From contig NC_087251.1 of NCBI RefSeq assembly GCF_037042905.1, forward strand, positions 1,116,001 through 1,180,000: 64,000 bases of DNA. The letters are read 5' to 3'. The notes under the pieces were generated by a model. The model saw only the letters and a program-made list of their open reading frames with translations. It ran no database searches and was not told where the DNA came from. The position numbers and the translations under genes are program-made. This DNA comes from Lytechinus pictus (taxonomy: Eukaryota). The stretch's first letter is position 1, and each line of letters opens with the position of its first letter. This document shows, one piece after another, positions 4,501 to 48,233 of this stretch.

Positions 4501-7500
4501 ATTTGCTATCCATAGTTAAACCATTATTTTAACAAATAAAACTAAATCAGATTTCAGAATACGGGCCAATGTCACCTTTTACATTTATTACTATTTTATT
4601 TGGCAGATATCCAACCTACAATATAAAACAAATCAACGATATTAAACAATCACTTCAATTACAAGGACAAAAATAACTGATGCAATAACGCAAATTTCTT
4701 TAGACACTGGATGCACCTGGATGAGCTGCCTGGCATTAGGCAATGTTAACCAAATAACAGTAGTCCATAGACTGCCCTAACCCTACACCACCAAGGTGAA
4801 TCCAGTGTCATATCTTTATGTGACATGCATATATCACATGCAACTATCATAGCATAAACTTGCATGTAAAAATACATATATGAACAAAATATATGTTAAA
4901 ACTTGCTCAGAATCTATAAGCATAAAGCCATTTACATTCAATACTGCATCTTAATGTGACATATTCATTGAAGCTTCAATGTCGACATCATTCAGCCCTC
5001 ATAGGGAAATTGTTTATTGGACAATAATTTAATCTTTCCCCATTTTACATCAGAGGGCTTCTACTGTGAAAGGCACACAAGACCACAAGGTTGCGCTTGA
5101 CCATGTATGTGTATGTTACTCTTTAACCCTCTAATCTTGATCAATCTGATATCTGTTTATCATACTTGAGTAAAGAATTCTCACCATTAAATGACCCCAA
5201 AACACCCCTAAAGCTTCTCCTTACCACAGCATATCTTAAATGCTTCATACGCTTAGTGACCTCATGAGAAACCTTGGCAGGGTGTGTCCTTCTCTTAGCT
5301 GTTGTCTTCACCATTAATTCATCTAACTCAAGGGTTCTTGTTGAAACTTCTTTCTTTAGTTCCAAATCTACTGCTTCGTAATCTGCAAGAATGAAGATTT
5401 GGAACATTAGTGCTGCACAGTTTAGATCATTGCCAGCTGTAAAAACCACAAACATTGTCAAGTAATGTTGATACACTACATTTTCAGCTAAGGCTAAAAA
5501 CAGAATGGAGATGGGGGGAAGGTTGTGGATGACATTTTTATGACCCCAGTGAGTTTTTTTGTACCTTTAGCTTAGGCAGATCAATTGTCTGACAGACAGA
5601 AACACATTCAAATGTCTATTGTTCACAATGTGATATATTGGCTGTTCATTGTCATATCGTGCAGCCATACTTACCTGTATCCCAGGGGTGCTCATATAAC
5701 ATTAAAACAATTCCAGTCTTTTGAGAGATGAAGGGAAAATAAAGGCATTTTGGGTAGCAGAAGCAGTATTGTCAACTTAACTGCATTAGACATTGTGTAA
5801 ATGAATTTGGAGAAAATCTTATTTTTATGAAACCTGCAGCATTTTCACAAAAATGTATTATATAAAAGGAACTGTGGGCATCTTTTGTTATCTGATTAAT
5901 ACAGACTTCAGTTTTTTCTCAGGTGAATAGGTAGTTCCACTTTGTCCAACTTTTCTTCTTGTTCTCATCACACATGGTCTAATCCTTGTTTGCCAATAAC
6001 CAGTTTGTCTACTAACCATTTAGTCTAATTGCAATTCAGCCCATTCACCATTTTGCCTAGTTTCTAGTTAGGCTATACCTATTCCAACTACTGTAATATC
6101 CACTTGGTCTAGCATTCAGTCTTTATGATTAAAAATTGTTTTTTTAAACAAATTTTCATTTGTCAAAGTGCAAAATAGTACTTATACATAGTGGAAATTA
6201 GACCATATGGGCATTAGCCATTAGACTGACAGTTAGACCAAATAATAATGGTTGGACCACAAATAATCAGACCAAATTGATAGTAGACCAAATAAGTTTG
6301 GCCTCAAAGAAAGAATTTAATATCAGGATACTGTACACCCCTTTTGAACTGCACTATTTAGTCACAGATCAGGGTTGCCAACTGGCCTTTTTTCCGGCCA
6401 GATTCCCGAAATCTGGCCGTAAAAAAAGTAGCTTGGCCGTGAAAAAAAAAAATTTCACGGCCAAAGAAATTTGGCCGTATTCTGGCCGTAAAACAGAAAT
6501 CTTGGCCGTGAGTTTTCATTTCTGGCCTTTTTCATAATCAGATAGAAAAATTGATCAGAAAATCACTTTAAATAGGTCTATGTCATAGAGATGTAGCGTT
6601 ATTAGTATACATCTCTATGGTCTATATATACAAATGCAGTCAGGTTTACGCACGCATGTGCCACGGCGTGTACTTTGCATGGATTAGCCCTGATCTAGCT
6701 AACGCTACGGTACGGCGCGGCATAGATATACCATGAAGCTATTAATAGCTTCATGGATATACAGCATGCATTCTCAAAACGCGCGATTAGTTGCGTAACG
6801 TGTGGGGGAGGGGATTCTTATATTTATTTGTCAACCAGTCACCATCATCATATTTTCGCCATCATATATATTATATTATTAACGTTTGTTTTCTTTAAAA
6901 AAAAAGTAATTGAATAAAGTAAAATTCAAATATTTAGTTCTTTTTCCTTTCTTTTTTCTTTTTCTTTTCTACGTATTTTTTTCTCTCTTCTTTTTTTTTA
7001 TAGGATATCTACTAGGATTTAAAATCGAGTAGGTGTGTCTCACAATTTAAAATCAGGGCTTTTACTAAAAATATGTGATAAAAATATGCCTACTAGTATG
7101 CAAGTAGGATGGAGATCGATGACAGAGAAAGAAATGAGGAAAATCACAGCTCCAACAGGGGCGGATCCAGCTTATCTGAAGGCTGTACATGTTTGGTTAG
7201 TCATGACCATATAAAGATGTAATTGCAAAATAAACAGTGTTTGGCTATATAATGTGATCAAAAGTAATCAAAAGCAGCCCAACCTTTACATATTACGTTT
7301 TCTATTTTTTTCTGTTTTCTTCTTTCTCAATACTTCCTCAACTATAATTTTCTCTCTCTCTCTCTTTTTGTCGTGAGTTTGAAAATCCCCCATGAAGCTT
7401 GGCATATGATTATTGGCAAAACAAAACAAAACAAAAAAGCTCAATCTTTTAAATGCTCCTCGAATATAGCTGATATGAACTAGATCGAAATGCATGGTGC

Positions 7501-10500
7501 TTTCATCGGCCGTTTTCCTCGAGTCGATAGTCACCAATGTACGGTAGGTAACTTTGCGAACTATTCTCCGCTTCAGCACCCGTTCCGCACGGTTTACATG
7601 AGATCTAACTTTTTTTTAAAGTATGCAGGCTCTATTAGGGAAGCACATAGCATCATTAATTGAGTATAGGGGTATGTCTAATTATTTCCTAATGTAGATA
7701 AAATTTGGCCGTGAAAAAAAATTGTTTAGCCGAATTTGGCCGCAAAATCTGTTGAGTTTGGCCGTAAAGACTAGCGACGATCTGGCAACCCTGTCACAGA
7801 TATCTTGAGAAATGGTTTCAAATTTTCATTGTCAACAAAAGGTTTGTCAGCTGCAGCTCAAGCATGCATTTGGCCAAATTTACAGGGACATAACCAACAG
7901 ACAGTTCTGCCTGACAAACAGTAATGGGAACTGGGATACGTGTACAATCCTTACCCCCTACTACCAGCCAGAATTCCTTACTCTTATTATCTTACCAACT
8001 ATATCCAATCCCAAAACATGATGTATATGGTAGGAATATTTTGCTGCCAAATCATTGGTGCTAATAAAACTGAAAAATCATCTACATGTATAACACAAAT
8101 GTATGAATTAGTAAAGTGCAACAAACATAGAATTTCACAAATATTTCATCTGATTTTGCCTTCTACAAAGTTTACTACTCCCATTCAATATCTTCTACAT
8201 TTACAGAATTTTTTTTTGCATGGAGGAGCCACTTTCATGACTTCTGTTCATTCCTTGATTCCTACTGCCATTGTTTTCCTGTTTGTCAGTTGATTTGCTA
8301 CACATGAAAATCCATCTTAATCCATCTACTAATAAGAAAACTAAGTGAAATGAATTTACCTTTGGTTGTATTCCCATCTTCCAATGACTGACTCCATGTT
8401 TGACCGTCTACAGTAATGTTGTCATGGACTGTGTTTTCATAAATCTGAATAAGAAAAAAAAAAACAAATTAAACAAAAGACTACAACATCCTCAACATAT
8501 AATTAAACTATTCACACAGCCATTTGGTACTGATGATTCATAGTCAGGCACCATATGTCATCTACTTCGACAAACTGGCCAAGTCTGGTTTTTCACTTTT
8601 TATGTGATTGGTGAGATCACAAGGAACAACTTTCAACTTGGTGACAAATTTCTAATGGTCATCTTGACCATGTTAGGGGTCTAAATGGGGTAAAGAAAAC
8701 CCTAACTGTGTCGAGTGATACATCAAAATTATTTGTCTTGTAAATACTGAACAAAAAAGTGTATAGAACTGTATACCTAGGGTTGCAAAGGGCTGGAAAA
8801 TTTCTAGAAATTTGGAAAATTTCCATGGGAAGTTTCAGGATTTTCAGCTGCCGGGAATTTTCAATTTTTTTTTAAATACAAATTTACCATTGATATTGAG
8901 TGAACAGCTATTCTTCATGCTTTATATGCTTACGGTAAATAGCAGAGATGTTTATCAAAGTGTAATGTATACGTTTACGTTATACATACATACGCATGTA
9001 CAATTCAACATGGAAAAGAAAATCATCACACCCATTACCATTTTCTTAGTTTCTGTAATGTCAAGGGGTTTAGAACCTGTCTTCCATTTCTCATTGCCTG
9101 TTAATAGAACAAAAACCCTTGTTGGATCACTCTTTTTTTGGTTCAGTATGGTATATAGGGTCATTGTAGGATGATTTCCATATCCTACATATCATACGGT
9201 CTCCTTGGAATGGTCGTACAATTTTCATACTGATTCACAATTATTGTAGTATTGTAGGGGCTATGCAAATCTTTCCTGGCTTCGTCAAGTAGTTTTCTGG
9301 ACCAGTAATTTCTATGAATTTTTGGATCAAATAAGGATTTAACAAAAGAAAAAAGAGCTTGCATTTTTAGGTTTTGAATAAATCTACATAATTAATGAAG
9401 TTCAATAATAATAATAATAATAACACAAGTCATAATAATATTGGGCATACATTTTATAGCACACATATCCACCTTATTTATAGGTGCTCAAGGCACCCCT
9501 GTATTATCCCAGCTTAGCTTGTCTACCAATTCCAGTGCTTACAGCTTTTTGAGGAATTATTTCCTATTGGTACCAATTAACCTCACCTTGGTTGAGTGCA
9601 CCAGATTATGCATCTATTGAATCACACATGGCTGGGATTCGAACCCACAACCTTCAAATTCTTGAATCTAATCCACTGGGCCACAACGCTCCATAATTCT
9701 AGACACTCCCCCACAGACTTACATGTATACACAAATAAACAACTTAAGTACAGGACTACTAATCACAGCGTTGACTCAAAAACATGGTTCTTAATATGTT
9801 CTGAGGGGGTCAGTTTCAAGCTGTAAGCCCTCAAAGAAACCTCAAATTTAGCCTAAAATTACTCCTTTTTTCAGTTTAATATATCTTAGCTTCGTTCGAA
9901 GCCATCTTGTAGCCTATATCACAATCTACGTCCCTCGCAATGCTTGATTTTTGTTGACCCTGCAAACCTAGAAGTAAAAGCCTTGTTTTAATTTTACCTA
10001 AACACGCTCTGCAGCGTGATGATATGCCCAATGTACGTCGTGGAAAACCTTTTTTTTTTACTGAAAATGACCATGGTTCGACGAATTAGCATTGAAATAA
10101 CGAGAATTGTAAGTTTTCTTCTGTATTATTTCAATTAAATGTATTATATACTGTGTTTTAGTCCTAAAATAAAAGCAAATAGAGAGGCCTCAATTGGGAA
10201 TTCTTGTGTTGTCTGATGCGCAAGCCTAGTGTTCTGCGGCCAGTGTGGCATCGCTACTGATTTTTCTTCTCGTTGACAAAATATAGAGCTTTCTTGCCTT
10301 TTCTGAATTTTTTGTATAAAGAGGGCGAGCAATTTACCTTCATATCTAAGACTCTACAAGTGAAAGACAAGGCACTAAAACTATTTTACACGTAAATCGA
10401 TGCAAAGCGTTACGCGAAGTCGGCAAAGCTAGTGTCCAATCTTTTTATTGTAAAGACTTTGATGGAACGTTTGTTGACAAACGAACATTGGCTCGCACTG

Positions 10501-13500
10501 CTGGCTTTTTTCTATTTTTTGTTCAATTAGTCATCGCTTTGAATGTTTTCCAAAAAGTGTTATCGTCAGCAAAAATGATCTAAAAAGTATGTTTTTTAAT
10601 TTATTGCATACATTTAATCACACAATCATAGGAATTGCACATGAATTTAGAATCTAGTACCCCACACAAATGAATTCACTGCCGAATCCAAAACGCAAAT
10701 GAACTGCACACAGGTCGTGCACAATTCGCTTTTGCATTTTGGATTCGGCAGTGAATTAATATGTGTGGGTACTGCGAACCGGCTTCAAATCACCGATTTT
10801 GAGACGTTTACAAGAAAGGGCAAGGAGTGAGTCTGTGTTCGATAGAAAGTTTAGTCACTGTAGAGTATTAAGCTGAATGTATGTTTTGGTAATATGTTGC
10901 CTTTGTTACCTAAAAGGACAAGTCCACCCCAACAAAAAGTTGATTTGAATAAAAAGAGAAAAATCCAACAAGCAAAACACTGAAAACTTCATCAAAATCG
11001 GATGTAAAATAAGGAAGTTATGACATTTTAAAGTTTTACTTAATTTCACAAAACAGTTCTACACACATCCTGGTCGGTATTCAAATGAGGACTGATCACA
11101 TCATCCACTCACTATATCTTTTGTATTCTATTACCGGTACATGAAATATTCTCATTTTCTCCTCATTGTCAAGTGAAACGATTGATTCCTCCATGAACAT
11201 GTGGAACTACGGTGTAGCATTGCTTAACTATATGATTCAGTCAAGTTGGTCACTATTGTCAAATCAGTAAAAAATGAAATATTGTATAATTCAAACAATA
11301 AAAAGCAAAAGAAATTGTGAGTGACGGACATCATTGGCTGTCTCATTAGCATGTCAATGAGTTGTGCATATCATTGTTTTGTGAAAAATAAGTGAATTTT
11401 TAAACCTTTTTTGTTTTACATCCGATTTTAATGAAATTTTCAGCGTTATGCTAGTTTAATTTTTCTACATTTATTAAAATCAACATTTTTCTGGGGTGTA
11501 CTTGACCTTTAAATATCTGAATATAAAGTGCCACATTTTGTCACTGGTTTTTGAGAGCGAGTATTTGTCCCCCGAGGGTTCGGATAGGATCATAGCCTAG
11601 GTGGAGCGGAGGGTAGCTGTAGTGAAGTGCAGTGGAGCCTATACGAACCATCGCCTGAGGTAAGATAGGCTCTAAGTTGCCTATCTCTTAAGTGTTATGG
11701 CAAGTTCCCCCAAGTCTGCGCACACGCGTATCTGCGCGATTCTAATAAAAGAAGATACACAACGAGCACAAACTTTACACATGCAACACATGGACAGATA
11801 TTCATTAAAAAATCCAACTCAAAATGGTGGGAAAATAATGAATTATGGGCATTTCATGTGACGGCCTCAAAATAACAGAATCGTGTGCAAAGTGAATGGG
11901 TGCGCACTGCGCAGACATGGGGTAGAGATCTACCATTTTTTTTTCTTCTTCTTCCAGTCTGGTATGGTATACAGTCCGCCACTAGCGTATTACTTTATTA
12001 TCGTACCTTTTCAATCTGAAAATGACTGCCCAAGGTTTTTTCCAAGAAAATCATATACCGGTACTTCTTTCAAATTTTTATGAATATGAGATATTTGGCA
12101 CACTAATTAGCTATATTACCCAAAAAATTAAAATAATAATAAATATTGGCGAATGATACATCAAATGAAAGGTCTTTGCATTAGAAATGCGATGAAAAAG
12201 TTTTAAAACGCATTCTGCCGCATACTTGTGATGCCTCAAAATTTTTGCGATAAACATTTCATGTTTGAAAATTGCTCCACGTCATTCCAAGAATATTTTC
12301 CCTCAAGTCTTGCACAACTTTTGAGTCCAAAATTATGGTGCTCGGGTATTTGGTTTTAAAATTACGCAACATTTAGTAGTACATGTCAGCCCCCAAAATG
12401 CTGAAATATGTGATTTAATTTTCAAAAGCGAAAAAATATATAAGAAAACGTCTTTGATATCAGTTGTTTTTAAAAAAAGATTGTTAGAAATGCCATGAAG
12501 AATACGTATGGCAAAAATTAGCATGTAATTATTTCATATAAAATGAAGTATATACATGTAAATATATATATTCAGTGGAGTTTAGCTCTACAATCAAGTA
12601 GTTGAGGTCATTTTTCTACAATCTTTTAAATTTTTGTTGCCATATCATGATCTTTTACAGAGAAATGGGGGAGCATATTCATGCTTATTTATTCATGAGA
12701 TTATGTTTTTGGCTGCCAACACTCATTTGCATGTTGCACTGTACATGTACCTTGATGACTCCAGCAATGCTGAATGTGGATATGCTGTGTGTGCATGTGT
12801 CATATGATCACGTGAGTGGCTGACTGATGCAAGTACAAAGTGGGGAGATTCAGGCTTAATGCGTGAGGAGGGGAGAGAGCCGGGGGGGACCAAAATATGA
12901 AATATGGTTTTGTGTATGTTGTGTGTACCTCGTTGTTACTACAGTGCGTATAAAAAAAACAGGACAGATTTAAAAAGTCTATAAAATTTTAGTTTCAAAT
13001 TATTATGTCTATATTTTGGTGTTAATAGGTGCTCTAAGGTCTTGTCTTTCAAATGCTATTAAAAAAATCTAGTTTTGTTCATGCTTGAGCGAACACGGGA
13101 CGTTTTTGTTGGGGGTTCAAAAAGAGGCTTGCGCCAGAATTGCAGAATATGAGTATCAAATATGATGATCGGACTTTTTGCTAATTAGCAGACTTCCTCT
13201 TAACCTTTTCATTATCTTTGCCATAATTTTCAAATCATGCGGTCAAAATTCATCTGTTATTTCTTTTTAATATGCTCTCTGTTAGCTTTGAATATTCCTT
13301 CTTCAAGCTAAAATTATTTTTTTTCAACCGAATTATGGGAGAGCATGGAGTTTTTATTCAAATCCTTTCATTATGTGCTACAAAGGTTATGGTGCCTTTT
13401 GAACAAAGCCACATAGATGAGCGGGCGCTCGGGTTGCTCCCCCCCCCCCCTCAATTAAAAAAAATCATGACCAAGAAAAAAAGTGGACAGGAAATAAAAG

Positions 13501-16500
13501 GAAAGATAGAAAGTAAAACATGATATTATTTTCTGAATATCATGTCAAAATCTATCACAAAATTTGATATTGTAATTAAACAAGTGGAACGCCTCTGGCA
13601 GTCTCGCCTGCATTACGTGATTTAATATAGTAGCAGTGCTAACTTTGAAAACTACTATAAAATAATCATTCACAAATACACCATTCATGTAACGACATAA
13701 TACCACGTTCATTGACCATAAATGACATTTGAACGGTGACTTCAGACTTGTCAACTACACCCATGTCCACATTTCATTCACTCTATCTATAAACTTTCAA
13801 AGTTATGATGGCAATTCAACAATTACCCCAACATGGCCTAAGTTTATTGACCTTAACTGACCTTTGACCTTGGTTTTGTGACCTGAAACTCGTACAGGAT
13901 GTTCAGTGATACTTGATTACTCTTTCTTATGTCCAAGTTTTATGAACTAGATCCGTAAATATTCAGAGTTAGGATGGTAATTTAACAAATACCCCCAAAG
14001 TTCATTGACCTTAAATGACCATTGACCATGGTCATGTGACCTGAAACTCGCACAGGATATTCAGTGGTACTTGATTAAACTAATGTACAAGTTTCATGAA
14101 CTAGATCCATAAATTTTCAAAGTTATGATGGTAATTCAACAAATACCCCCAACTTGGCCAAAGTTCATTGACCCTAAATTACCTTTGACCTTGGTCATGT
14201 GACCTGAAACTCAGGCAGGATGTTCACTAATACTTGATTAACCTTATGTCCAAGTTTCATGAACTAGATCCATAAATTGTCAAAGTTATGATAGTAATTC
14301 AACAAATACCCCCAACTTGACCAAAGTTCATTGACCCTAAATGACCTTTGACCTTGGTCACGTGACCTGAAACTCGAGCAGGATGTTCACTAATACTTGA
14401 TTAACCTTATGTCCAAGTTTCATGAACTAGGTCCATATACTTTCTAAGTTATGATGTCATTTCAAAAACTTAACCTTAGGTTAGGATTTGATGTTGACGC
14501 CGCCGCCGCCGTCGGAAAAGCGGCGCCTATAGTCTCGCTCTGCTATGCAGGCGAGACAAAAAGTGGAAATATTTGCGTGCTCACTTCGCTCGCTCACAAA
14601 TTTTTAATACATTTTACCCGATCTGCCCTATCTAGCTCCTTCAAAATTGATTCAATACACCATAGTCATTGAAATACATGAATCCCTTCCTGTGTTTCCT
14701 GTCAAGCAATTAAACTTGGTCAAGGAATTAATGACCCATTGAAAAATAGATTCATGTCTTTTAAAGGTACATAACATAATTTGTTTCACATAATAAAACG
14801 ATTTGAATAATCACAAGTTTTCCTAATTAATAATTCAAATCTTCTTGCTTGGGTTGACAAAAAAAATCTTCTTTTCTCAGTTACTTATGAATGAAAATTA
14901 AAAGGTAAGAGAAGTTTAAATGAAAAAACAAAATAATTCAATTAAATAAATAACTTTGTAAATGAAATTTGACAGCATAATTCGAAAATTGTGGCACAGA
15001 TAATGAAAAGGTCAAGAGGAATCTCCTGATTAGCAAGAAGTCTGATCATTTCATTACACATATTCTGCAATTCTGGCGCAAGCCTCTATTTGAACCCCCA
15101 ACAAGAACATCCCGTGTTCGCTCAAGCATGAATAAAATTTATTTTTTTAAATTGCATTTCAAAGAAGACCTTAGAGCATCTATTAACACCAAAATATAGG
15201 CATCATTATTTGATACAAAAATTTTATAGACTTCAAATCTGTCCGGTTTTTTTTGATACGCACTGTATGTTATGCTTATGCTCTATTTTTTTTTCTTATG
15301 TTTCTTTGTTTTTTATGATGATCCTTCAATGTCAAGACTTTATATCAATAAACTTAATTTGAAAAATTTGAATTTGTATAACTGTGTATTACAAGCTGTG
15401 TAAGTTTTTTGTTCAAAGGCTGCAGTAGAGGCGGGTCCAGGATATACCTGCATGAAGGGGGGAGGAGTAAAAAAAAAATGGACCCCCCTAAATTTTCTGT
15501 TGATAACCCTTTTTTTCCCCCTTGTCAACTTTTTTCCCTGGGTCCCCCCTAGATGTGCCCCCCCCCTAAAATTTTGGTTGATAACCCAATTTTTTTTTCA
15601 GGTGGACCCCCCCAAAAAATATTTTTTTTGGCTTGCCGCCACCAATAAAAAGGGAAGGGTACACGTGTAAAAGCAGCATTTTACATTAAATTTTTTTTTA
15701 TAATGGCTCTCAAGGGGGTGGGTAGGATGTGCCCCCCCCCCTTTGGATCCTCCACTGGTCCTGTACAGGGCACGCATTTAAATTGGGGGTGCCCGGGGGG
15801 GGGGGTGTAACTAACCTCTGGTGTCAAGGGGGCACAGCCAGCCCGTGCCCCCCCTTAAGGGCACAATTAAAATTTAAATGCTGTGAAAACTTAAGTGTGC
15901 CCCCCCCCCTTGAAAGTGAGGACTTTTTTTTTTGCTTGTCAGATTTTTTCGTAGAAGAAATGTACTTCATTTTTGGTTGAAAACATTTTATTTTTTTTTG
16001 CTTTTTCCTATTGAAAATGTGCCCCCCAACCCTTGGAAAATCCTAGATCCACCCCTGGTGTCAATACTAATTACTATGTATGAAAAGAGATATACCCCTT
16101 CCATCCCTGATGTAACCCATTTGCTGTCTATCTTTCTTTCTCTTTCTTCCTTTCTTTCTTTATTGCATACACAGCGTAACGATTCCAGCAAACTCTGTGG
16201 CTCGCCAGCTCATGCAATCATTTTTATTCTCTTTAATAGTTTCCTTATTTCAGGACCAATTTTCTTTGTTCAAAATTGAAAACCAATTAACATTGGATTT
16301 CTTAAAAATACAATATGCCTTTGAAACGGTGACAGATAATAGAATGTCTTAAAGTTAAAGTCATGTAAGGAACATTATCAAATGAAAGATTTTGTGAAAT
16401 AAAAAGAAATTCATGTTAAATCTTATTTCAAATCGTTAGGTGCGCAGACTTGGGGACCACCATCATGATTAAATTTAGATTTTTTAATATCTAACGTTAG

Positions 16501-19114
16501 TACCGGTATTACTTTTTCTGAAAAAAAAAATCATGCCTCATGCCTCATCTGCTCATGGCATTTCTAAAAATGAATGAAGCTATTTTAACGTTAGGGTCAG
16601 GGTTGTAATAAAAAACGTTTTTTATTAAAAAAAACAAATAAAACGCTTTTTAATGTTTTAAAACGTTTTTTTCCCAACGAACGATGTAATTTTCTGTAAA
16701 TCAATTAAATTGTACATTTAATACAGTATGATTTAAGCTCTAGATGTTTTAAATACATTTTTGGAGTATTAGTAAGAGATGACTACAATTTTTTTTACTG
16801 AATTTCCAACAGAAAAGAATTTTCCCCCAAATAACAAAATCAAGGAAATTGAATGCCGAAAAAGTAAGTTGACATTTTATAAGTTTATTCCTCATACATA
16901 TGATGTAGTCTCAGGGTTTTTTGAGTCTTGTCAATCTAGGGGGTGAGAAGAATTTGCACAATGTAAGAAAATGACATAATCTATAGACTATAGGCTTTCA
17001 ATGCTTAATTTCATTTACTCAATATGCTTTATTTCATTTGAATCAATTATACAAATTTTAAGTAATAATAATGATAAAAGTCCGCTTTTATATCGCGCTT
17101 AATACATTGGAACGACATGTCTAAGCGCTTTAAAGATTTATTATTACCACAATCATCGGATTCAATCAGTCATTCCCGCACACAATGTATGCACATCCTC
17201 CACTCCCTGGGTAGTATTCAAGTCAGTCGCCAGTGAGGCGCACACAGTACTGGACAAGCTACAATGACTTTTACATTCTACCGGGTACCCATAAGTGCAA
17301 AATTGGGTTTAAATCTATAAATATTAGGCCCTTGAACTGCTTATTTCTTTAATTGAGGAATTCTGATCAAATTGTTTTTTTAATGTTTGTTTTAACTGTT
17401 TTTTTTACATATTTCTTATCTACAGTTTTGCGGTTACTTTTGTGTTTTTTTAATCGGTTTTTTAATGGAAATTATTGGCAATAATTTTCCAATCATTAAC
17501 AAAAAGTACAAATATTGATACAGATAAAAATGTTGGCGAAAAATTTGCATTGGCTTTATACATGAAATCACGATATTGAGCAATTCTGGTCTGTCATGCA
17601 CTTGTAATATCATTGAGCTATTAATGTGTTGATAGCTCCATGGTAATATCATAACCACATATCCATGCATGTATCCAAAAAATAGTCTTGAACAATATGG
17701 CATGGCCCTGTTGTGCTTATGGATTTATCATAGAAATTTTTAAGGGGGCCATTACGGTCCCCTGGGAGTGTTAGGGTTAAAGGTCAAGTCCACCCCAGAA
17801 AAATGTTTGATTTGAATCAGTAGAAAAAATTCAAACAAGCATAATGCTGAAAATTTCATCAAAATCGGATGTAAAATAAGAAAGTTATAACATTTTAAAA
17901 TTTCGCTTATTTTCACAAAACATTTATTACAACTCAGTGATGTGCAAATAAGAGAGTTGATAATGCCCCTCACTATTTTTTGTTAAAATTGTTTGAACAA
18001 TACAATATTTCAATTTTTACAGATTTGATAATAATGACCAACTTGACTGAACCAAAAAATGTTAAAACAATGGTAGTTCCACACATGTTCAGGGAGGAAA
18101 AAAAGGTTTGCTAGCTGATTATCTTATACTGAACTAAATTACTTTTCTTCATCTTTACGAAGCGCAAAGTTTCACCTAATTTCGTGTGTACCTCAAGGTT
18201 ACAATGTCAGTTATACAGTCTATTTGCAAAATATTATTATGTTTGTGCAACACTTCCATTTCATTCAAGTACTACTATTACATATTTGAGCTCATTTTAA
18301 ATAGTGTTTCTTTCCCTGTCTAAAAGTGAGCACAACACTCAGATGTTTGTTAAAATGAGAATATTCTTAAATATGGATTGATGTGCACAATTGAACAGGA
18401 GGAAAGGAACATGACAAAGCAATGGAGAAAGGGAGAATAAGGGGGGAAAGAGAGAGGAGAAAAAGAGTGGTGTTGAGAAAGAGATTTAGTTAGAAGAAAA
18501 TAATAAACCAATTAAGAAATAAAAGTATAAAAAATAAATTCATGTAAAATCACATCCATGCATATTTATAACACACAAGTCTATGAGGTGTTTTAAAACA
18601 TGTTTTAAAACACACCGTTTAAAACGCGCCAACCCTGGTTAGGGATATTCATATTACGGTAGCGTGATTAGGTGAAATTGACTTCACATCCTTCGGTAAG
18701 TTTCGTAGAAGCCAGAAGGACTAGATTTTATTAAAGCTAACGTTGTTAAAAATTATCTTAAATTCGCGCGAAGTGTTGCGTGCGCCGGGCCTTACATTTT
18801 CCTGTGCACGGCGGCATATTATGCACCCATGGGCGATCTACCCCGCGCGCTTCGGCGGCGGAACTCCGACGTGTCGTGAGCTGACTAACGGCCCGGAAGG
18901 AAAGTGTCCTCTGCATTCTGCTCGAAAAGAGGTAGACATACATACGTACCTCCTTAAATCTTTGCTTTAATCCTTCCCTAAATTCCTCATTGTACTTTGT
19001 TTTGTCTATATGCTGGTTAACTGACGACAAAAGTGTTGTGATTGCTGTTGAAACTGCCTGTTTACTGCAGCAGCTTATCTTCTGCGAAGCCTTGACAGCA
19101 TCTTCAGAATCCAT
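1511..19114 (-). CDS. NSL1: Kinetochore-associated protein NSL1 homolog (MIS12 complex); exons 1-5, last exon outside window
   Basis: Exons (minus): 19114-18950 MDSEDAVKASQKISCCSKQAV...QRFKE; 8444-8360 IYENTVHDNITVDGQTWSQS...; 5382-5225 DYEAVD...ELDELMVKTTAKRRTHPAKVSHEV...; 2481-2421 EKYKPVIQPVQIKDKELPKQ; 1572-1511 VLDEESKRLQEAGCDISAISR. All introns are GT-AG and phases 0,1,0,1,0 join in frame. Motifs match recalled vertebrate NSL1 (RVRCTSKRAV; ENISINGQAW; FDEIIVDIATKRKQYPRKI; YHPVVHP). Confidence 0.88.
2170..2398 (+). mobile_element. LINE (L2/CR1-like) 3' UTR remnant
   Basis: Stem-loop-like cagggccctgg...aggctaccctggg followed by an AAAT-type tail. The 5' boundary is approximate. Confidence 0.4.
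2602..4034. mobile_element. Kolobok-type MITE with nested insertions
   Basis: Termini AGGGGAGTTCACC / GGTGAACTTGCCCT flanked by TTAA-like sites. Interrupted at about 2658-3613 by a hairpin-bearing element that itself holds a SINE 3' fragment (about 2797-2890). Confidence 0.65.
6370..7793. mobile_element. Non-autonomous hAT-type DNA transposon
   Basis: TIR CAGGGTTGCCA / TGGCAACCCTG, perfect 8-bp TSD TCACAGAT (6362-6369, 7794-7801), many subterminal TTGGCCGT repeats at both ends. Confidence 0.88.
9404..9692 (-). mobile_element. tRNA-derived SINE
   Basis: Minus-strand head GGAGCGTTGTGGCCCAGTGG (A box) ... GGTTCGAATCC (B box), core-like body and (ATT)n tail. Related 3' ends occur at about 2800, 17070 and 22700. 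Confidence 0.75.
10915..11508. mobile_element. Kolobok-type MITE
   Basis: Termini AGGACAAGTCCACCCC / GGGGTGTACTTGACCT followed by TTAA; long imperfect inverted arms; same family as 17781-18105. Confidence 0.75.
12942..15265. mobile_element. Tc1/mariner-type non-autonomous element with about 250-bp TIRs, carrying a nested HINE
   Basis: TA|CAGTGCGTAT...ATACGCACTG|TA. Left arm (about 12942-13200) is the reverse complement of the right arm (about 15020-15265). Confidence 0.85.
13579..14560 (-). mobile_element. Helentron-associated (HINE/DINE-1/Tsp-like) element, copy A
   Basis: Subterminal inverted repeat GTCTCGCCTGCA / TGCAGGCGAGAC, (GCC)n microsatellite, central ~120-bp tandem repeats (GACCTTTGACCTTGGTCATGTGACC), T/A-run termini without a TSD. 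Confidence 0.8.
16598..18637. mobile_element. hAT-type element with nested SINE fragment and Kolobok MITE fragment
   Basis: TIR tips CAGGGTTG / CAACCCTG; 8-bp TSD GTTAGGGT vs GTTAGGGA (7/8); AAAACG subterminal repeats. Nested SINE 3' part at about 17062-17291 and Kolobok fragment at 17781-18105. Confidence 0.65.
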
Positions 19115-19367
19115 TTTCAATCTTTGCGCGCGATCACTGCTTATATTTCACTTACCGGTATACTATAGTAATAGATTTTGAAGTTAAAATTTGAAATAAT
19201 TCAAAATTAAATTTTTTTAATTTACTTTTAAATTTGAAAATATACCAAAAAAATTTAACTATCCTAAAATTTACATAATATTACAAAATTCGAAAGCTAT
19301 AATTTTCTTATATTGATAGAGGCTCTTGTAAAAAACGGTGAATCCCCAGGCCAGTAGATGATAAACG
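19115..19367. promoter_or_regulatory. Putative bidirectional promoter between NSL1 and TATDN3
   Basis: Only 253 bp separate the two divergent ATGs (19114 minus, 19368 plus), with an AT-rich core. Inferred from geometry only. Confidence 0.7.
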
Positions 19368-22300
19368 ATGGATGCTGGTCGTGGAACATTTATTGACTGC
19401 CATTGTCATTTAGCTGCAAATGATTTCAAAGAGGTAAATAGACAGCCTTATATGATATAAATTTTTGTCAGTCCAATACCTATCTGGTCATGATGTTTGA
19501 CAATGTGAAAACTTTATGTAAAATCTAACTTTGTCTTTGTTGTGACTTGTGTGGAACATATAATTAAATTTGTTTGTCTGGATGACAGACATGACTGAAG
19601 TTCAACTTCAAATTCAGAATCAAACTCAAAGTAAAAAGGCGGTTTTTTATCAGGAGGGCGGAGCTTAAGTCTAGCCAAGAGGGCTCTGTACTAATTGCCA
19701 TCACTGATCCAAGGCCCAAGACACTGTAAGTAGAGCCATATGTTGAAAAATACATGTGGATTTCCATAGAATTAGAAAATCCATATTACTCGTCTTAAGC
19801 ATAATTATTGTGAATCCGAGATATTGATGTTGATAATGAACTTAACTATCATGCACATGTAGCTCAAGCAGTAAATCGAGCTAACCAGATGCTGGGACTC
19901 ATAAAGAGAACATTTACATACCTATCTAGAGAAACGTTACCTGTCCTGTTTAAGTCACTAGTTCGTCCTCTACTTGAATACTGCAATGTTATATGGTATC
20001 CAAGATTCAAATTGGATGCCATCAAGATAGAGAAGATCCAGAGAAGAGCCACCAAGCTAGTGCCTGAACTGAAGCATCTAACTTATGAAACAAGACTGAA
20101 GGAACTCAACATGTTCTCTCTACATTACAGAAGAATCAGAGGTGATATGATTGAAGTTTATAGAATTATGAATGGACTGGTAGACTTTGATCCAGATCTC
20201 TTCTTCACACCCATAAGCCAAAGTATCACTCGAGGTCATCACATGAAGCTGTACAAATATAGAAGCAACTCATCGCTAAGGAAAAACAGCTTTAGTCAGA
20301 GAGTGATTGACTCCTGGAACAGTCTTCCTTCTTCTGTAATCTCGGCATCCACTTTAAACATTTTCAAAACTAGACTGGACAAACACTGGTCCTCCATGCA
20401 CCAAATTCTCCCATAAATATCCGCCCTCCACACACGTTTAGTTGTTTTAAAGTCCAGTTTAAGAAACTTCGAAGGAATGATCGGAAGCACTACAGGACTA
20501 CCTACTTCTTCCGTACAACGATGATGATGATGATGATGATAAGGTTTGTAAATTGTAATCCATGCATATAGGATTCAAAATTTGACTAAAACAAAGTTCA
20601 CAAATAAACAGGTTTCTTTCCAGATTGATAACCTGCTTGTAGATCAAAAGCTTCGGACTCTGTTTTATTGGTTGTTCCACTGAACTCTGTTGGATCCACT
20701 CACCAATTACAGAGACCGAAGTTCTAACTCAATTTGTACAGGGACTCAATTGCCATATGTTTATGTATTAAGTTCGGCTAAACCAGGGAAGTAAAGTTGC
20801 GCGACAGCCGAAGTAAGTCACTGTTTTTTGTACTTTTTTCCTTTTAAATTCATTTTTTCCCGTTTTGGTGCATTTCAGGCCAAAACGGAATAATAATCTT
20901 TATTTTGGTCCAGTTCTTTTCATATATTTTTATGAAATAAAGACAAAAATTGATGAGCCCTGTCGGGGGATCTTGCATTTTTAACCCCCTAATGGCAGCT
21001 GCACGATCGCGAGCCATCTGTGTACAAGGAGAAAAAATGTTTAAAAACTCCTCGAAGCAGACGGCTGCCAGCTGTCTAACCTGCTTGCATCTCCAGTTCT
21101 CCAGACCACAATTTACCCACGCTTTCAATAAGATGATCTCTGACTCGTTTCAAGAGAGAAAGTACATTAGTATTAAATTTCCATATACTGTTTCTATATT
21201 TTGCATGTTTCCCATATCCTTTGTTTGTTTCTTTGCATTTTTAGGATCTTGCTGAAGTGATTTCCAGAGCCACAAATGTAAGTTAAGTACAAATTCAACA
21301 ATGACTATTGAATTTTTCCCATAAAAAAATCTTTGATATTTTCAAACTATTCAAACTTAAACTTGAATCTTAGATGGCACCAACTTGGTAGCACGTCGCT
21401 GAACTTTTTTGATGGCTTTCAGGTCACAGACATACCTTGGGTGCCAAATAGCATTTCCATAGTCAAGAATAGGTCTCACCATGGACCTCCTACTAGGTCC
21501 ATGGTCTCACCAATGCTTTGTACAATTTAAGAATGGTATCTTTATCTCTATAAATGGAAGTATGCCAGATCAGAAAAAGTACACGGTTGGCTTTCAGTAC
21601 GGCACTGAATTTATAAATGAGATCAAAGTTTCATTTTCTTTCTTTTAATACCCCTTTTCCACTAGGGCCAGGACAGCGTCAGGACAAGGCGCGGAATGTA
21701 ATAATTGCAATTCGCGACCCTTCCGCACCCTGTCCGGACATTCCTGGGAGTGTCCGCACGCTGTCCTAAACCCTTCCTGGTGTTCGGGAAATCAAAATTT
21801 GTCCGCATCCAAATTTTGGTCTCGACCAAAATTTGGACGCGGATATTGAATTCCTGACACCTTCGGGACCTTGTCCTAACGATGTCCTGATGATGTCTCG
21901 CCCTTCATAAACCCTTCCGCGTCTTCCGGAAACCATCCGCGCTCAGGTCAGCTTCAGGTAGCAAAGAAGAAGTCATGCGGAATGTTTCAGGAACGTGCGG
22001 ACGGGAATAAGAAGGCAAGCGGACAGTTCCAGGAACGTTCAGACTGGTCAGGAATAGGAAGGCAAGCGGAGTGATTCAGGAATGTGTGGATCCAATGCTA
22101 ATATGTATGGAACGAGTTCACAAGTAGCAAAAGCCATTTGTGGTCAGTGCGCTAGATGGGGCAACGTGATAATACAAGACAAGAAAATTACAAAAAGTAA
22201 CAAAGTACGGGGTCAAGTGGCCTCATTAGTATATCACTAAACAAACCTGAGAACTTAAAATTTCAAGCAGTGTTTTAAACATATTGCGCGAAGCACGAGC

Positions 22301-47145: not shown

Positions 47146-48233
47146 AAAACAAGCTGCGTATCTGCATAAACATGCGTGTGCGTGTTAAGATTCAGACCTA
47201 GTATCTGGGCATTCTAAATAATTTTTTTAATATAAAAATCAATAATGCGAGCGCGAAGCGCGAGCAGAGAATATTTGATATTCCGATCTGGAAAAGGGTG
47301 AATTTAAACACTTTCCAAGTACTATGTCGGAAAATTCTGTAGGGGGGTCTACAAAACGTCGTTTATTTTCAATACATTTCTGTCATTCATCATACCTACT
47401 AGATTTCCAGGAAATACCTATGGAAAATAACACACGCAGCACCCCAAAGAAAATTTTGGGCCATGGGTTAGGGCGAAAAAGACTGAAATTTGATTTCTAT
47501 TGTCTGACTTGTAATATACAAAACACCAGCGGTCGGGCGCGCGCACACTTGATTCGACATAACACCTGGAATTTTCAAGTCCAACCCATAGAGATGTATA
47601 CTAATTAATTTTATCTCTATGGTCCAACCACACCAATGTCCCTCCCTGCAGTAGTTTGCATGGTTATCACGTATTGCGCGCGACCATGTCTGTATCGGAG
47701 TGCCGGAGCTTAATTGAGGAGGACAAGAGATATATGTTATTGGAATAATTGTGAAAGACAGTAGTAAATGATTTGTGATTGTCGGATGTGATAATTATGT
47801 ACATTATAACATATTTAAAAAATACAGGGGGAACCTGATTTCGTGGGGGTGCTGCCTATGGAAAATAATACACGCAGCACCCCCAGGAAAATTTCTGTTC
47901 CCAGGTCCATGTTCTCACCTATCAATATGTAAAGAGAATGGTTCAGTCATGTTGATCCTTATAGTGTTAAATCGGTACAAAATGAGATATTGTATACCGG
48001 TACTTCAAACAATAAAAAAAAAAAAAATTGTGAGTGAGGGACATCATCGTCTGTCTCATTTGCATGTCACTATTTTGCTTTTTTTTTGCTTCCCGCTCGC
48101 ATCATTTTTATAGTGAGATCCCTCATGGCGTATCCTGTCCGAGCAGCATTGGGACATGATAGGAATCTGTTGAGCTGAAAAATCAAAGTTCTGGCTATAT
48201 TATGTATACGGGGTATTACCGTCTCCATAGCTA

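Follow-up and report, generated by a model that had tools for sequence, protein, structure and literature searches.

The ends of Drosophila P elements begin with CAT, and the footprints left by their excision are textbook knowledge. With these elements as the closest described system, we analyzed a stretch of 64,000 nucleotides from Lytechinus pictus (C7:1116001-1180000, forward strand, where C7 is contig NC_087251.1; G+C content approximately 36%), which is part of an assembly of 811.7 Mb in 368 contigs and is called the window in the following. It carries four micro-inserts of 24 to 36 bp, each bounded by terminal inverted repeats (TIRs) and flanked by a target-site duplication (TSD). With a probability of roughly 0.8, every micro-insert was left behind as a scar when a cut-and-paste TIR transposon, most likely a member of the P superfamily, had inserted once and been excised again. 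The scars fall into three families, named 1, 2, and 3, the last with the groups 3a and 3b.

According to the available text of PMC7776569, Drosophila P is cut at the donor with a stagger of 17 nt, called unusually long there, its transposase binds at sites internal to the TIR, and its footprints keep both TSD copies around a small palindrome of the outermost TIR bases, as the scars described here do. The 17-nt stagger equals the upper limit of terminal sequence retained in family 3b (17-18 nt), and family 1 resembles P in its 8-bp TSD and TIR of approximately 30 bp. Unlike those experimental products, the scars of L. pictus are fixed in the germline and number in the thousands; moreover, family 1 retains up to 24 nt, families 2 and 3 have 7-bp TSDs, and no autonomous copy was found among the loci examined.

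The Galileo/1360 clade compares best with the 7-bp families, as the accessible part of PMC2775673 gives a 7-bp TSD with the consensus GTAGTAC, constrained at its outer GT...AC. However, Galileo TIRs are very long and internally repetitive, whereas those of family 3 measure approximately 23-31 bp in short elements (103-854 bp), and the host here is not Drosophila. No report of Galileo scars was found in the literature, as far as its accessible parts extend. Outside insects, zebrafish Pdre2/THAP9 is P-like and resembles family 1, with an 8-bp TSD and a CATA start (its end begins CATACCTGTCAAC, i.e., CATACC; available sections of PMC10983969). Pdre2 TIRs are given there as only 13 bp, which is less than the 24 nt kept in family-1 scars, and thus its cut geometry cannot match that of family 1.

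From the nearly precise excision of Tn10, the scars differ in their product spectrum, their sharp upper bound and their filler bases. Footprints of hAT elements (Ac/Ds, Hermes) consist of a few bases derived from hairpinned flanking DNA, and no element ends are retained. They likewise keep an 8-bp TSD around a small repair scar, but here 8-24 nt of each TIR are retained, and the scars start and end with the terminal bases of the element rather than showing a flank-derived palindrome with the element ends lost.

Micro-inserts of the window and their genomic relatives

The coordinates and construction of the four micro-inserts are given in Table 1. All were already listed in a preliminary description of the window and are present as stated there; the TSD of the insert at 6584 is imperfect (GTCTATGT / GTCTATAT, 7/8). 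The insert at 47587 indeed has a perfect 9-bp TIR within a perfect 8-bp TSD, and its prefix matches the TIRs of the long elements L031-L036. The insert at 6584 has a 12-bp TIR; its reverse complement and the insert at 47587 have their first 19 nt in common and therefore belong to one family, family 1. Family 2 is defined by the insert at 6732, whose 24-mer recurs identically at two other genomic sites listed; L078 was examined and has its own 7-bp TSD, TTGTAAC. The insert at 21480 defines family 3 (ends CATGGACCT...). Its filler, CCTAC, is a copy of TIR positions 7-11, and an alternative reading of this site, with an insert of 22 bp and a repeat of 9 bp, is equally good. In a paralogous copy of the repeat that hosts the insert at 6584 (L025), an independent family-1 scar lies at a distance of 4 bp, so that each copy displays the target of the other uninterrupted. 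When a perfect TIR of 8 bp or more, a perfect 7- or 8-bp TSD and an insert of 16-60 bp are required, the window yields three sites, compared with a mean of 0.02 and a maximum of 1 in 100 first-order Markov surrogates.

The genome was searched with a 10-mer, a gap of 0-40 nt and the inverted 10-mer for family 1, and with gaps of 0-60 nt for families 2 and 3; the same patterns reversed served as controls. Genome results consist of pattern counts, match listings and small sequence stretches. Distributions are taken from the matches listed, i.e., the first 100 per pattern, and as these come in contig order, they stem from the first contigs only. Short end-to-end sites number 157 for family 1, 418 for family 2 and 1,685 for family 3 genome-wide, and 0, 0 and 1 in the respective reversed controls. 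A family-1 15-mer has 519+530 matches (reversed control 0+1). The first 30 of these represent 25 distinct places: 13 scars, eight places with one old embedded scar, three ends of long elements and a single one-sided case.

Tallied by eye over the first 50 sites listed, family-1 inserts measure 22-58 bp (median 35) and family-3 inserts 18-51 bp (median 24). The proposal that insert size tracks TSD length thus holds for the medians (35 bp with 8-bp and 24 bp with 7-bp TSDs, first 50 sites listed each), but not as a strict relation, as 7-bp scars span 18-41 bp. Likewise, both 7-bp inserts of the window are exactly 24 bp long, but they do not represent one class, since two different junction types coincide in length, an overlap at TA at 6732 and a filler join at 21480. 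Among the family-1 and family-3 inserts listed, the combinations of truncation points are mostly unique.

TSDs accompany the scars at unrelated flanks. For family 1, ten of 14 scars have a perfect 8-bp TSD and one matches at 7/8 (assessed by eye, with six of the perfect cases re-checked). For family 3, perfect 7-bp TSDs are found in 13/20 scars, 6/7 matches in five and none in two; the 13 contexts of family 2 comprise eight perfect 7-bp TSDs, one at 6/7, one of 8 bp and three without. Repeated insertion and excision is directly visible at three identical loci, where a family-1 scar of 18 bp, flanked by an 8-bp TSD of its own (TTACTAGT), is nested in a 39-bp family-1 scar. The identity of these three loci presumably reflects later duplication.

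Longer elements with the same TIRs, expected if the inserts are scars, were found for family 1 (1.27-3.46 kb) and family 3 (approximately 103-854 bp, TIRs of approximately 23-31 bp). Those of family 1 are non-coding, measure 1,267, approximately 2,913 and 3,463 bp, occur in dozens of copies with 80-95% identity and have TIRs of approximately 30 bp with perfect 8-bp TSDs in six of six cases. Only six family-1 sites have a gap of 41-140 nt, all of them compound; the size range of 61-160 bp is otherwise empty. In family 3, the subterminal motif ATGGACATTCA is found at 629 termini. An element of approximately 842 bp is flanked by TSDs that match at 7/7, 7/7 and 6/7, a subfamily of 609-740 bp has 7/7 in three of three, and transposable elements of the miniature inverted-repeat type (MITEs) of 116-130 bp exist. 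For family 2, beyond a 193-bp composite described below, there are few pairs of approximately 350-500 bp among the matches listed.

Taken as scars, the inserts would arise as follows. Insertion would duplicate a target of 8 bp for family 1 (ends CATAGAGATGTATAC...) and of 7 bp for family 2 (CATGAAGCTA...) and family 3 (CATGGACCTA...). Upon excision, one strand would be cut exactly at the junction of element and flank and the other far inside the TIR, whereby a long 3' tail of TIR sequence, single-stranded, would stay on each flank. Being inverted copies, the tails could be annealed by host end-joining at TA, AT, CG, GC, GTATAC or TAATTA, or alternatively be joined bluntly or with a few filler bases, after which flaps would be trimmed and the break sealed. 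The product would be a small palindrome between two intact TSD copies. As it contains no internal transposase-binding sequence, such a scar would be immobile; it would persist, decay neutrally and possibly be copied passively when its host repeat amplifies. Microhomology-mediated end joining is the likely pathway and a P-type transposase the likely enzyme.

Junction construction and retention ceilings

Scars were decomposed with TIRs taken from the long elements, the TIR library of family 3 being incomplete. Nine of 12 family-1 and 16 of 27 family-3 scars consist exactly of a TIR prefix plus a TIR suffix with an overlap of 0-6 nt, and four and seven of these sets, respectively, are zero-overlap junctions (4/12 and 7/27). 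The scars that are not prefix plus suffix, among them 3/12 of family 1, contain 1-21 nt of filler. Recurrent sizes are those predicted from annealing of two identical single-stranded TIR tails at self-complementary words. In family 1, GTATAC at positions 10-15 yields 24 bp (five of the first 50 sites listed), CG at positions 22-23 yields 44 bp (at least six sites) and GC at positions 23-24 yields 46 bp (at least 11 sites); in family 2, AT, TA and CG at positions 10-15 yield 20, 24 and 28 bp, each found at 3-4 sites listed.

As anticipated in the preliminary description, cut geometry can be read from the genome, for TIR retention ends abruptly, the limit being 24 nt for family 1 and 17-18 nt for family 3b. 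Of 217 family-1 termini matching the TIR through position 23, the first 100 were examined: breaks after positions 23, 24, 25, 26 and 27 occur in 26, 21, 2, 3 and 1 cases, and 47 termini continue as long elements. Each break at 25-27 could also be ascribed to the other arm, and such breaks show no excess over chance extension. Several scars unambiguously require 24 nt, those examined having a perfect 8-bp TSD (L124-L126). Altogether, five TSDs at maximum retention are perfect and one matches at 7/8; the 46-bp scars L122 and L123 belong to the perfect ones, L121 has 7/8. For family 3b, a terminus was counted at position n when it matched through n and mismatched at n+1. Breaks after positions 16, 17, 18, 19, 20 and 21 number 33, 103, 152, 17, 8 and 0, and 338 termini continue. 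A 29-bp class of family 3a requires 20 nt of one end, with three perfect 7-bp TSDs, two at 6/7 and one at 3/7. We infer that the ceiling marks the depth of the 5' cut, which would be approximately 24 nt for family 1 and 17-18 nt for family 3b; for family 3a, it would be 20 nt or more.

Neither of the two geometries suggested earlier agrees with these values. The 17-nt geometry of P does not apply to the 8-bp family, whose ceiling is 24 nt, and the 24-bp inserts do not record a stagger of approximately 12 nt, as scars with 7-bp TSDs keep up to 17-20 nt of one end. Their length of 24 bp results from joining at the TA dinucleotide at TIR positions 12-13 and is one recurrent size within 18-46 bp.

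It is conceivable, at slightly less than even odds, that the depth at which P-like families cut their own ends differs between them (17-18, at least 20, and 24 nt, the deepest exceeding that of any characterized transposase by 7 nt), that the genome constitutes a quantitative fossil record of these depths, and that family 3a survives only as scars. Thousands of natural scars give the 17-nt figure for one family and 24 nt for another without an experiment. If this is true, the stagger length of P-type transposases can evolve, and any genome would reveal it per family, along with germline end-joining preferences. The scars would provide a cheap gauge of cleavage geometry for uncharacterized transposases, THAP9-like ones included, and would show how double-strand breaks are repaired in the germline of a non-model organism (use of microhomology, synthesis of filler); scars alone could reveal extinct transposon families. 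For annotation, these palindromes of 18-46 bp form a genuine class of repeats, which standard libraries would overlook or label wrongly. A literature search by titles and abstract openings found no report of a genome with thousands of fixed P-type scars or of a cut depth read per family from scars.

Superfamily assignment and alternative explanations

That the micro-inserts are scars is very probable. As the preliminary description had held, they are repair scars rather than mobile mini-MITEs: their junctions are heterogeneous, they consist of TIR ends only, and they are flanked by TSDs at unrelated sites. Its assignment of these scars to the P superfamily is likely as well, but the support for this part is indirect, as no THAP or P-type transposase was found between these TIRs at the loci examined. 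The assignment draws on TSD length, element ends starting CATG or CATA, a GTNNNAC target, the 17-18-nt ceiling and P-type transposase genes in the genome. Read as cut depths, the ceilings of families 1, 3a and 3b would correspond to the long staggered donor cleavage of the P superfamily. TSDs of 8 bp in family 1 and of 7 bp in families 2 and 3 correspond to P and to Galileo/1360, respectively. The TSD profile of families 2 and 3 (n=30) reads G17 T21 N N N A27 C21, flanked by T at -2 and by A at +2/+3, and thus has the palindromic target of the Galileo type. Its agreement with the outer positions of the Galileo consensus, as far as this is given in the available text of PMC2775673, points to the P superfamily.

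The genome contains 41 matches to PF21787, the P-type RNaseH-N domain. An open reading frame (ORF) of 817 aa encodes the full set of HTH, RNaseH-N, GTP-binding insertion, RNaseH-C and THAP9_C. A P-type transposase ORF of 959 aa exists in two copies at C4:26.17 Mb and C21:9.25 Mb, which are 99.4% identical over more than 6.9 kb.

Two side observations concern these genes. The copies of the 959-aa ORF (L042/L043 with L050-L053) have direct repeats of approximately 157 bp on both sides, and one contains a 960-bp insertion of another element. At C6:17788503-17804583, approximately 14 P-type RNaseH-N fragments lie on one strand within 16 kb; they may represent either a tandem array or a collection of dead P-type transposase fragments.

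Several results weigh against the proposed origin of the scars. Among the loci examined, no coding element with these TIRs was found, i.e., none that encodes THAP/HTH and a split RNaseH with GTP-binding insertion between them. The long family-1 copies examined have no ORF above 150 aa, and the 4.7-kb extra segment of a 7.6-kb family-1 copy has none above 127 aa. When two P-type proteins were compared with the elements by tblastn, the best hit in family 3 had E=1.4 and family 1 gave no match. Scans around four P-type ORFs revealed no detectable TIR/TSD pair, the P-type transposase loci examined contain neither the family motifs nor the subterminal motifs, and their comparison with each other revealed no autonomous copy either. 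The family-1 ceiling of 24 nt differs from the known P value. Filler is needed in 11/27 family-3 scars, partly owing to the incomplete TIR library. In family 3a (CATGGACCTACTACTCTG...), the TIR sequence is established only to approximately 20 nt. No long copy occurs among the 83 termini listed, and four candidate long ends have only 23-26 nt in common and then diverge, two of them being scars of 23 bp whose 7-bp TSDs are perfect. A family-2 38-mer and a family-1 scar with the flank TGTCTTCAAC are identical short inserts of very high abundance. Their abundance is attributed to passive copying inside larger repeats, based on common flanks in 6/6 and 8/8 cases, which is a sample rather than a full census. 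To these points is added the restriction of all genome results to the kinds of data, the listed matches and the first contigs named above.

The best surviving alternative is that the scars stem from a non-P superfamily that cuts far inside its TIRs, the P-type genes being bystanders or domesticated. It would account for the lack of a P-type ORF between these TIRs in the loci examined and for a family-1 ceiling that departs from the only measured P value. A hairpin MITE of approximately 103 bp, which has its first 11 nt (CATGGACCTAT) in common with family 3 and TSDs of 8/8, 8/8 and 7/8, also speaks in its favor: one end motif goes with two TSD lengths, and both are thus only loosely coupled. 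On the other hand, TSDs of 7 and 8 bp, CATG/CATA ends, a Galileo-like GT...AC target and a 17-18-nt ceiling equal to that of Drosophila P agree with each other. We know of no other eukaryotic superfamily that leaves long TIR tails on the donor. P-type transposases are, to our knowledge, the only characterized cut-and-paste enzymes whose cut lies 17 nt within the ends of the element, and this figure comes from one enzyme and one fly element. We consider a non-P origin unlikely.

An excision independent of transposase, as in the nearly precise excision of Tn10, would proceed by slippage or deletion between palindromic words of both TIRs without a staggered cut. Since self-complementary TIR words form direct repeats at both ends, it would yield the same overlap products (for family 1, 24, 44, and 46 bp; for family 2, 20, 24, and 28 bp). 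It gives, however, no reason why retention should end at position 24 or 18. Among the matches listed, no junction lies at the CTAG palindrome of family-1 positions 25-28, the 61-160 bp range of family 1 holds compound sites only, and many junctions have zero overlap or contain filler, templated or non-templated. The use of any short repeat without bound and without filler, which marks this type of excision, is therefore not what the scars display, and we regard it as very improbable.

Least probable is that mobile micro-MITEs of 18-46 bp spread by amplification instead of independent excisions: identical inserts do recur at unrelated sites with their own TSDs (the family-1 24-mer as given above, a family-3a 33-mer at approximately 20/83 termini listed and a 29-mer at six sites), but most inserts are unique combinations of truncation points, the recurrent ones are predicted by microhomology or represent near-full retention, the truly high-copy ones have common flanks and are passengers of larger repeats, and the scars lack the internal sequence where, according to the available text of PMC7776569, the Drosophila P transposase binds. 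True family-3 MITEs (103 bp, 116-130 bp, and 609-854 bp) exist separately from the scars, which have no interior that could be conserved between near-identical copies with their own TSDs.

Repeat passengers and further loci

The repeat-borne inserts are read as excision scars that were copied secondarily. A decayed family-1 scar with the flank TGTCTTCAAC (variant TCAACTTAAC in L006) lies inside another high-copy repeat at eight places and is thus older than the amplification of that repeat. The family-2 38-mer has identical flanks in 6/6 cases and forms the TIR foldback of a 193-bp composite, which consists of this 38-bp foldback, approximately 117 bp and a second terminus and sits in a GATA/GACA-type microsatellite. 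The composite occurs in tandem arrays with a period of approximately 2.6-2.7 kb on several chromosomes. Its membership in the composite and the constant flanks identify the 38-mer as a passenger and not as a mobile micro-element. The 2.6-kb tandem unit gave no Rfam match at gathering score, and its ORFs are of low complexity only. One-sided scars of family 3a consist of 23 nt of the terminus ending CATG, followed by the repeated 7-bp target (perfect in 2/4).

Table 1. Micro-inserts of the window (window positions) and related genomic loci (contig positions or locus identifiers).
Feature	Location	Strand	Remarks
Left 8-bp TSD copy GTCTATGT	6576..6583	no strand	7/8 match to 6620-6627
Family-1 excision scar, 36 bp	6584..6619	no strand	12 + 24 nt (26 counting the 2-nt TA overlap)
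Right 8-bp TSD copy GTCTATAT	6620..6627	no strand	one substitution compared with 6576-6583
Left 7-bp TSD copy GATATAC	6725..6731	no strand	
Family-2 excision scar, 24-bp perfect palindrome	6732..6755	no strand	13+13-2, joined at TA, TIR positions 12-13
Right 7-bp TSD copy GATATAC	6756..6762	no strand	
Left 7-bp TSD copy GTCTCAC	21473..21479	no strand	
Family-3 excision scar, 24 bp	21480..21503	no strand	9 nt + 5 nt filler + 10 nt
Right 7-bp TSD copy GTCTCAC	21504..21510	no strand	
Left 8-bp TSD copy GTCCAACC	47579..47586	no strand	identical to 47622-47629
Family-1 excision scar, 35 bp	47587..47621	no strand	21 nt from one end of the TIR pair + 5 nt filler + 9 nt from the other
Right 8-bp TSD copy GTCCAACC	47622..47629	no strand	perfect repeat of the left copy
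Scar-within-scar loci, family 1	C5:8382065-8382129, C5:8383765-8383829, C20:183884-183948		
Embedded decayed family-1 scar	L001, L006, L009, L012, L019, L022, L026, L027		
Family-2 composite arrays	L127, L128; C4:25.23 Mb, C5:9.41 Mb, C6:19.96 Mb, C7:6.94 Mb, C1:43.6 Mb		
Family-3a one-sided scars	L100-L103: C3:72688791, C16:24263651, C2:57830502, C18:17691228		
Hairpin MITE of approximately 103 bp	L110-L112: C2:25986654, C3:18070031, C5:15672299		

A search of the genome for paralogous empty sites with exact-flank motifs returned the window itself as the sole match. Nine public read runs contain just 5-9% of the sampled words, and bridging contigs at window positions 6000-22000 are paralogues of 90-95%, this stretch being highly repetitive. 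At window positions 10800-18300, contigs from four public runs reach summed word depths of 10^5-10^6 and thus indicate very high-copy repeats. The region around the scar at 21480 is deep as well, with a summed word depth of approximately 4x10^4 in the contigs from public runs.

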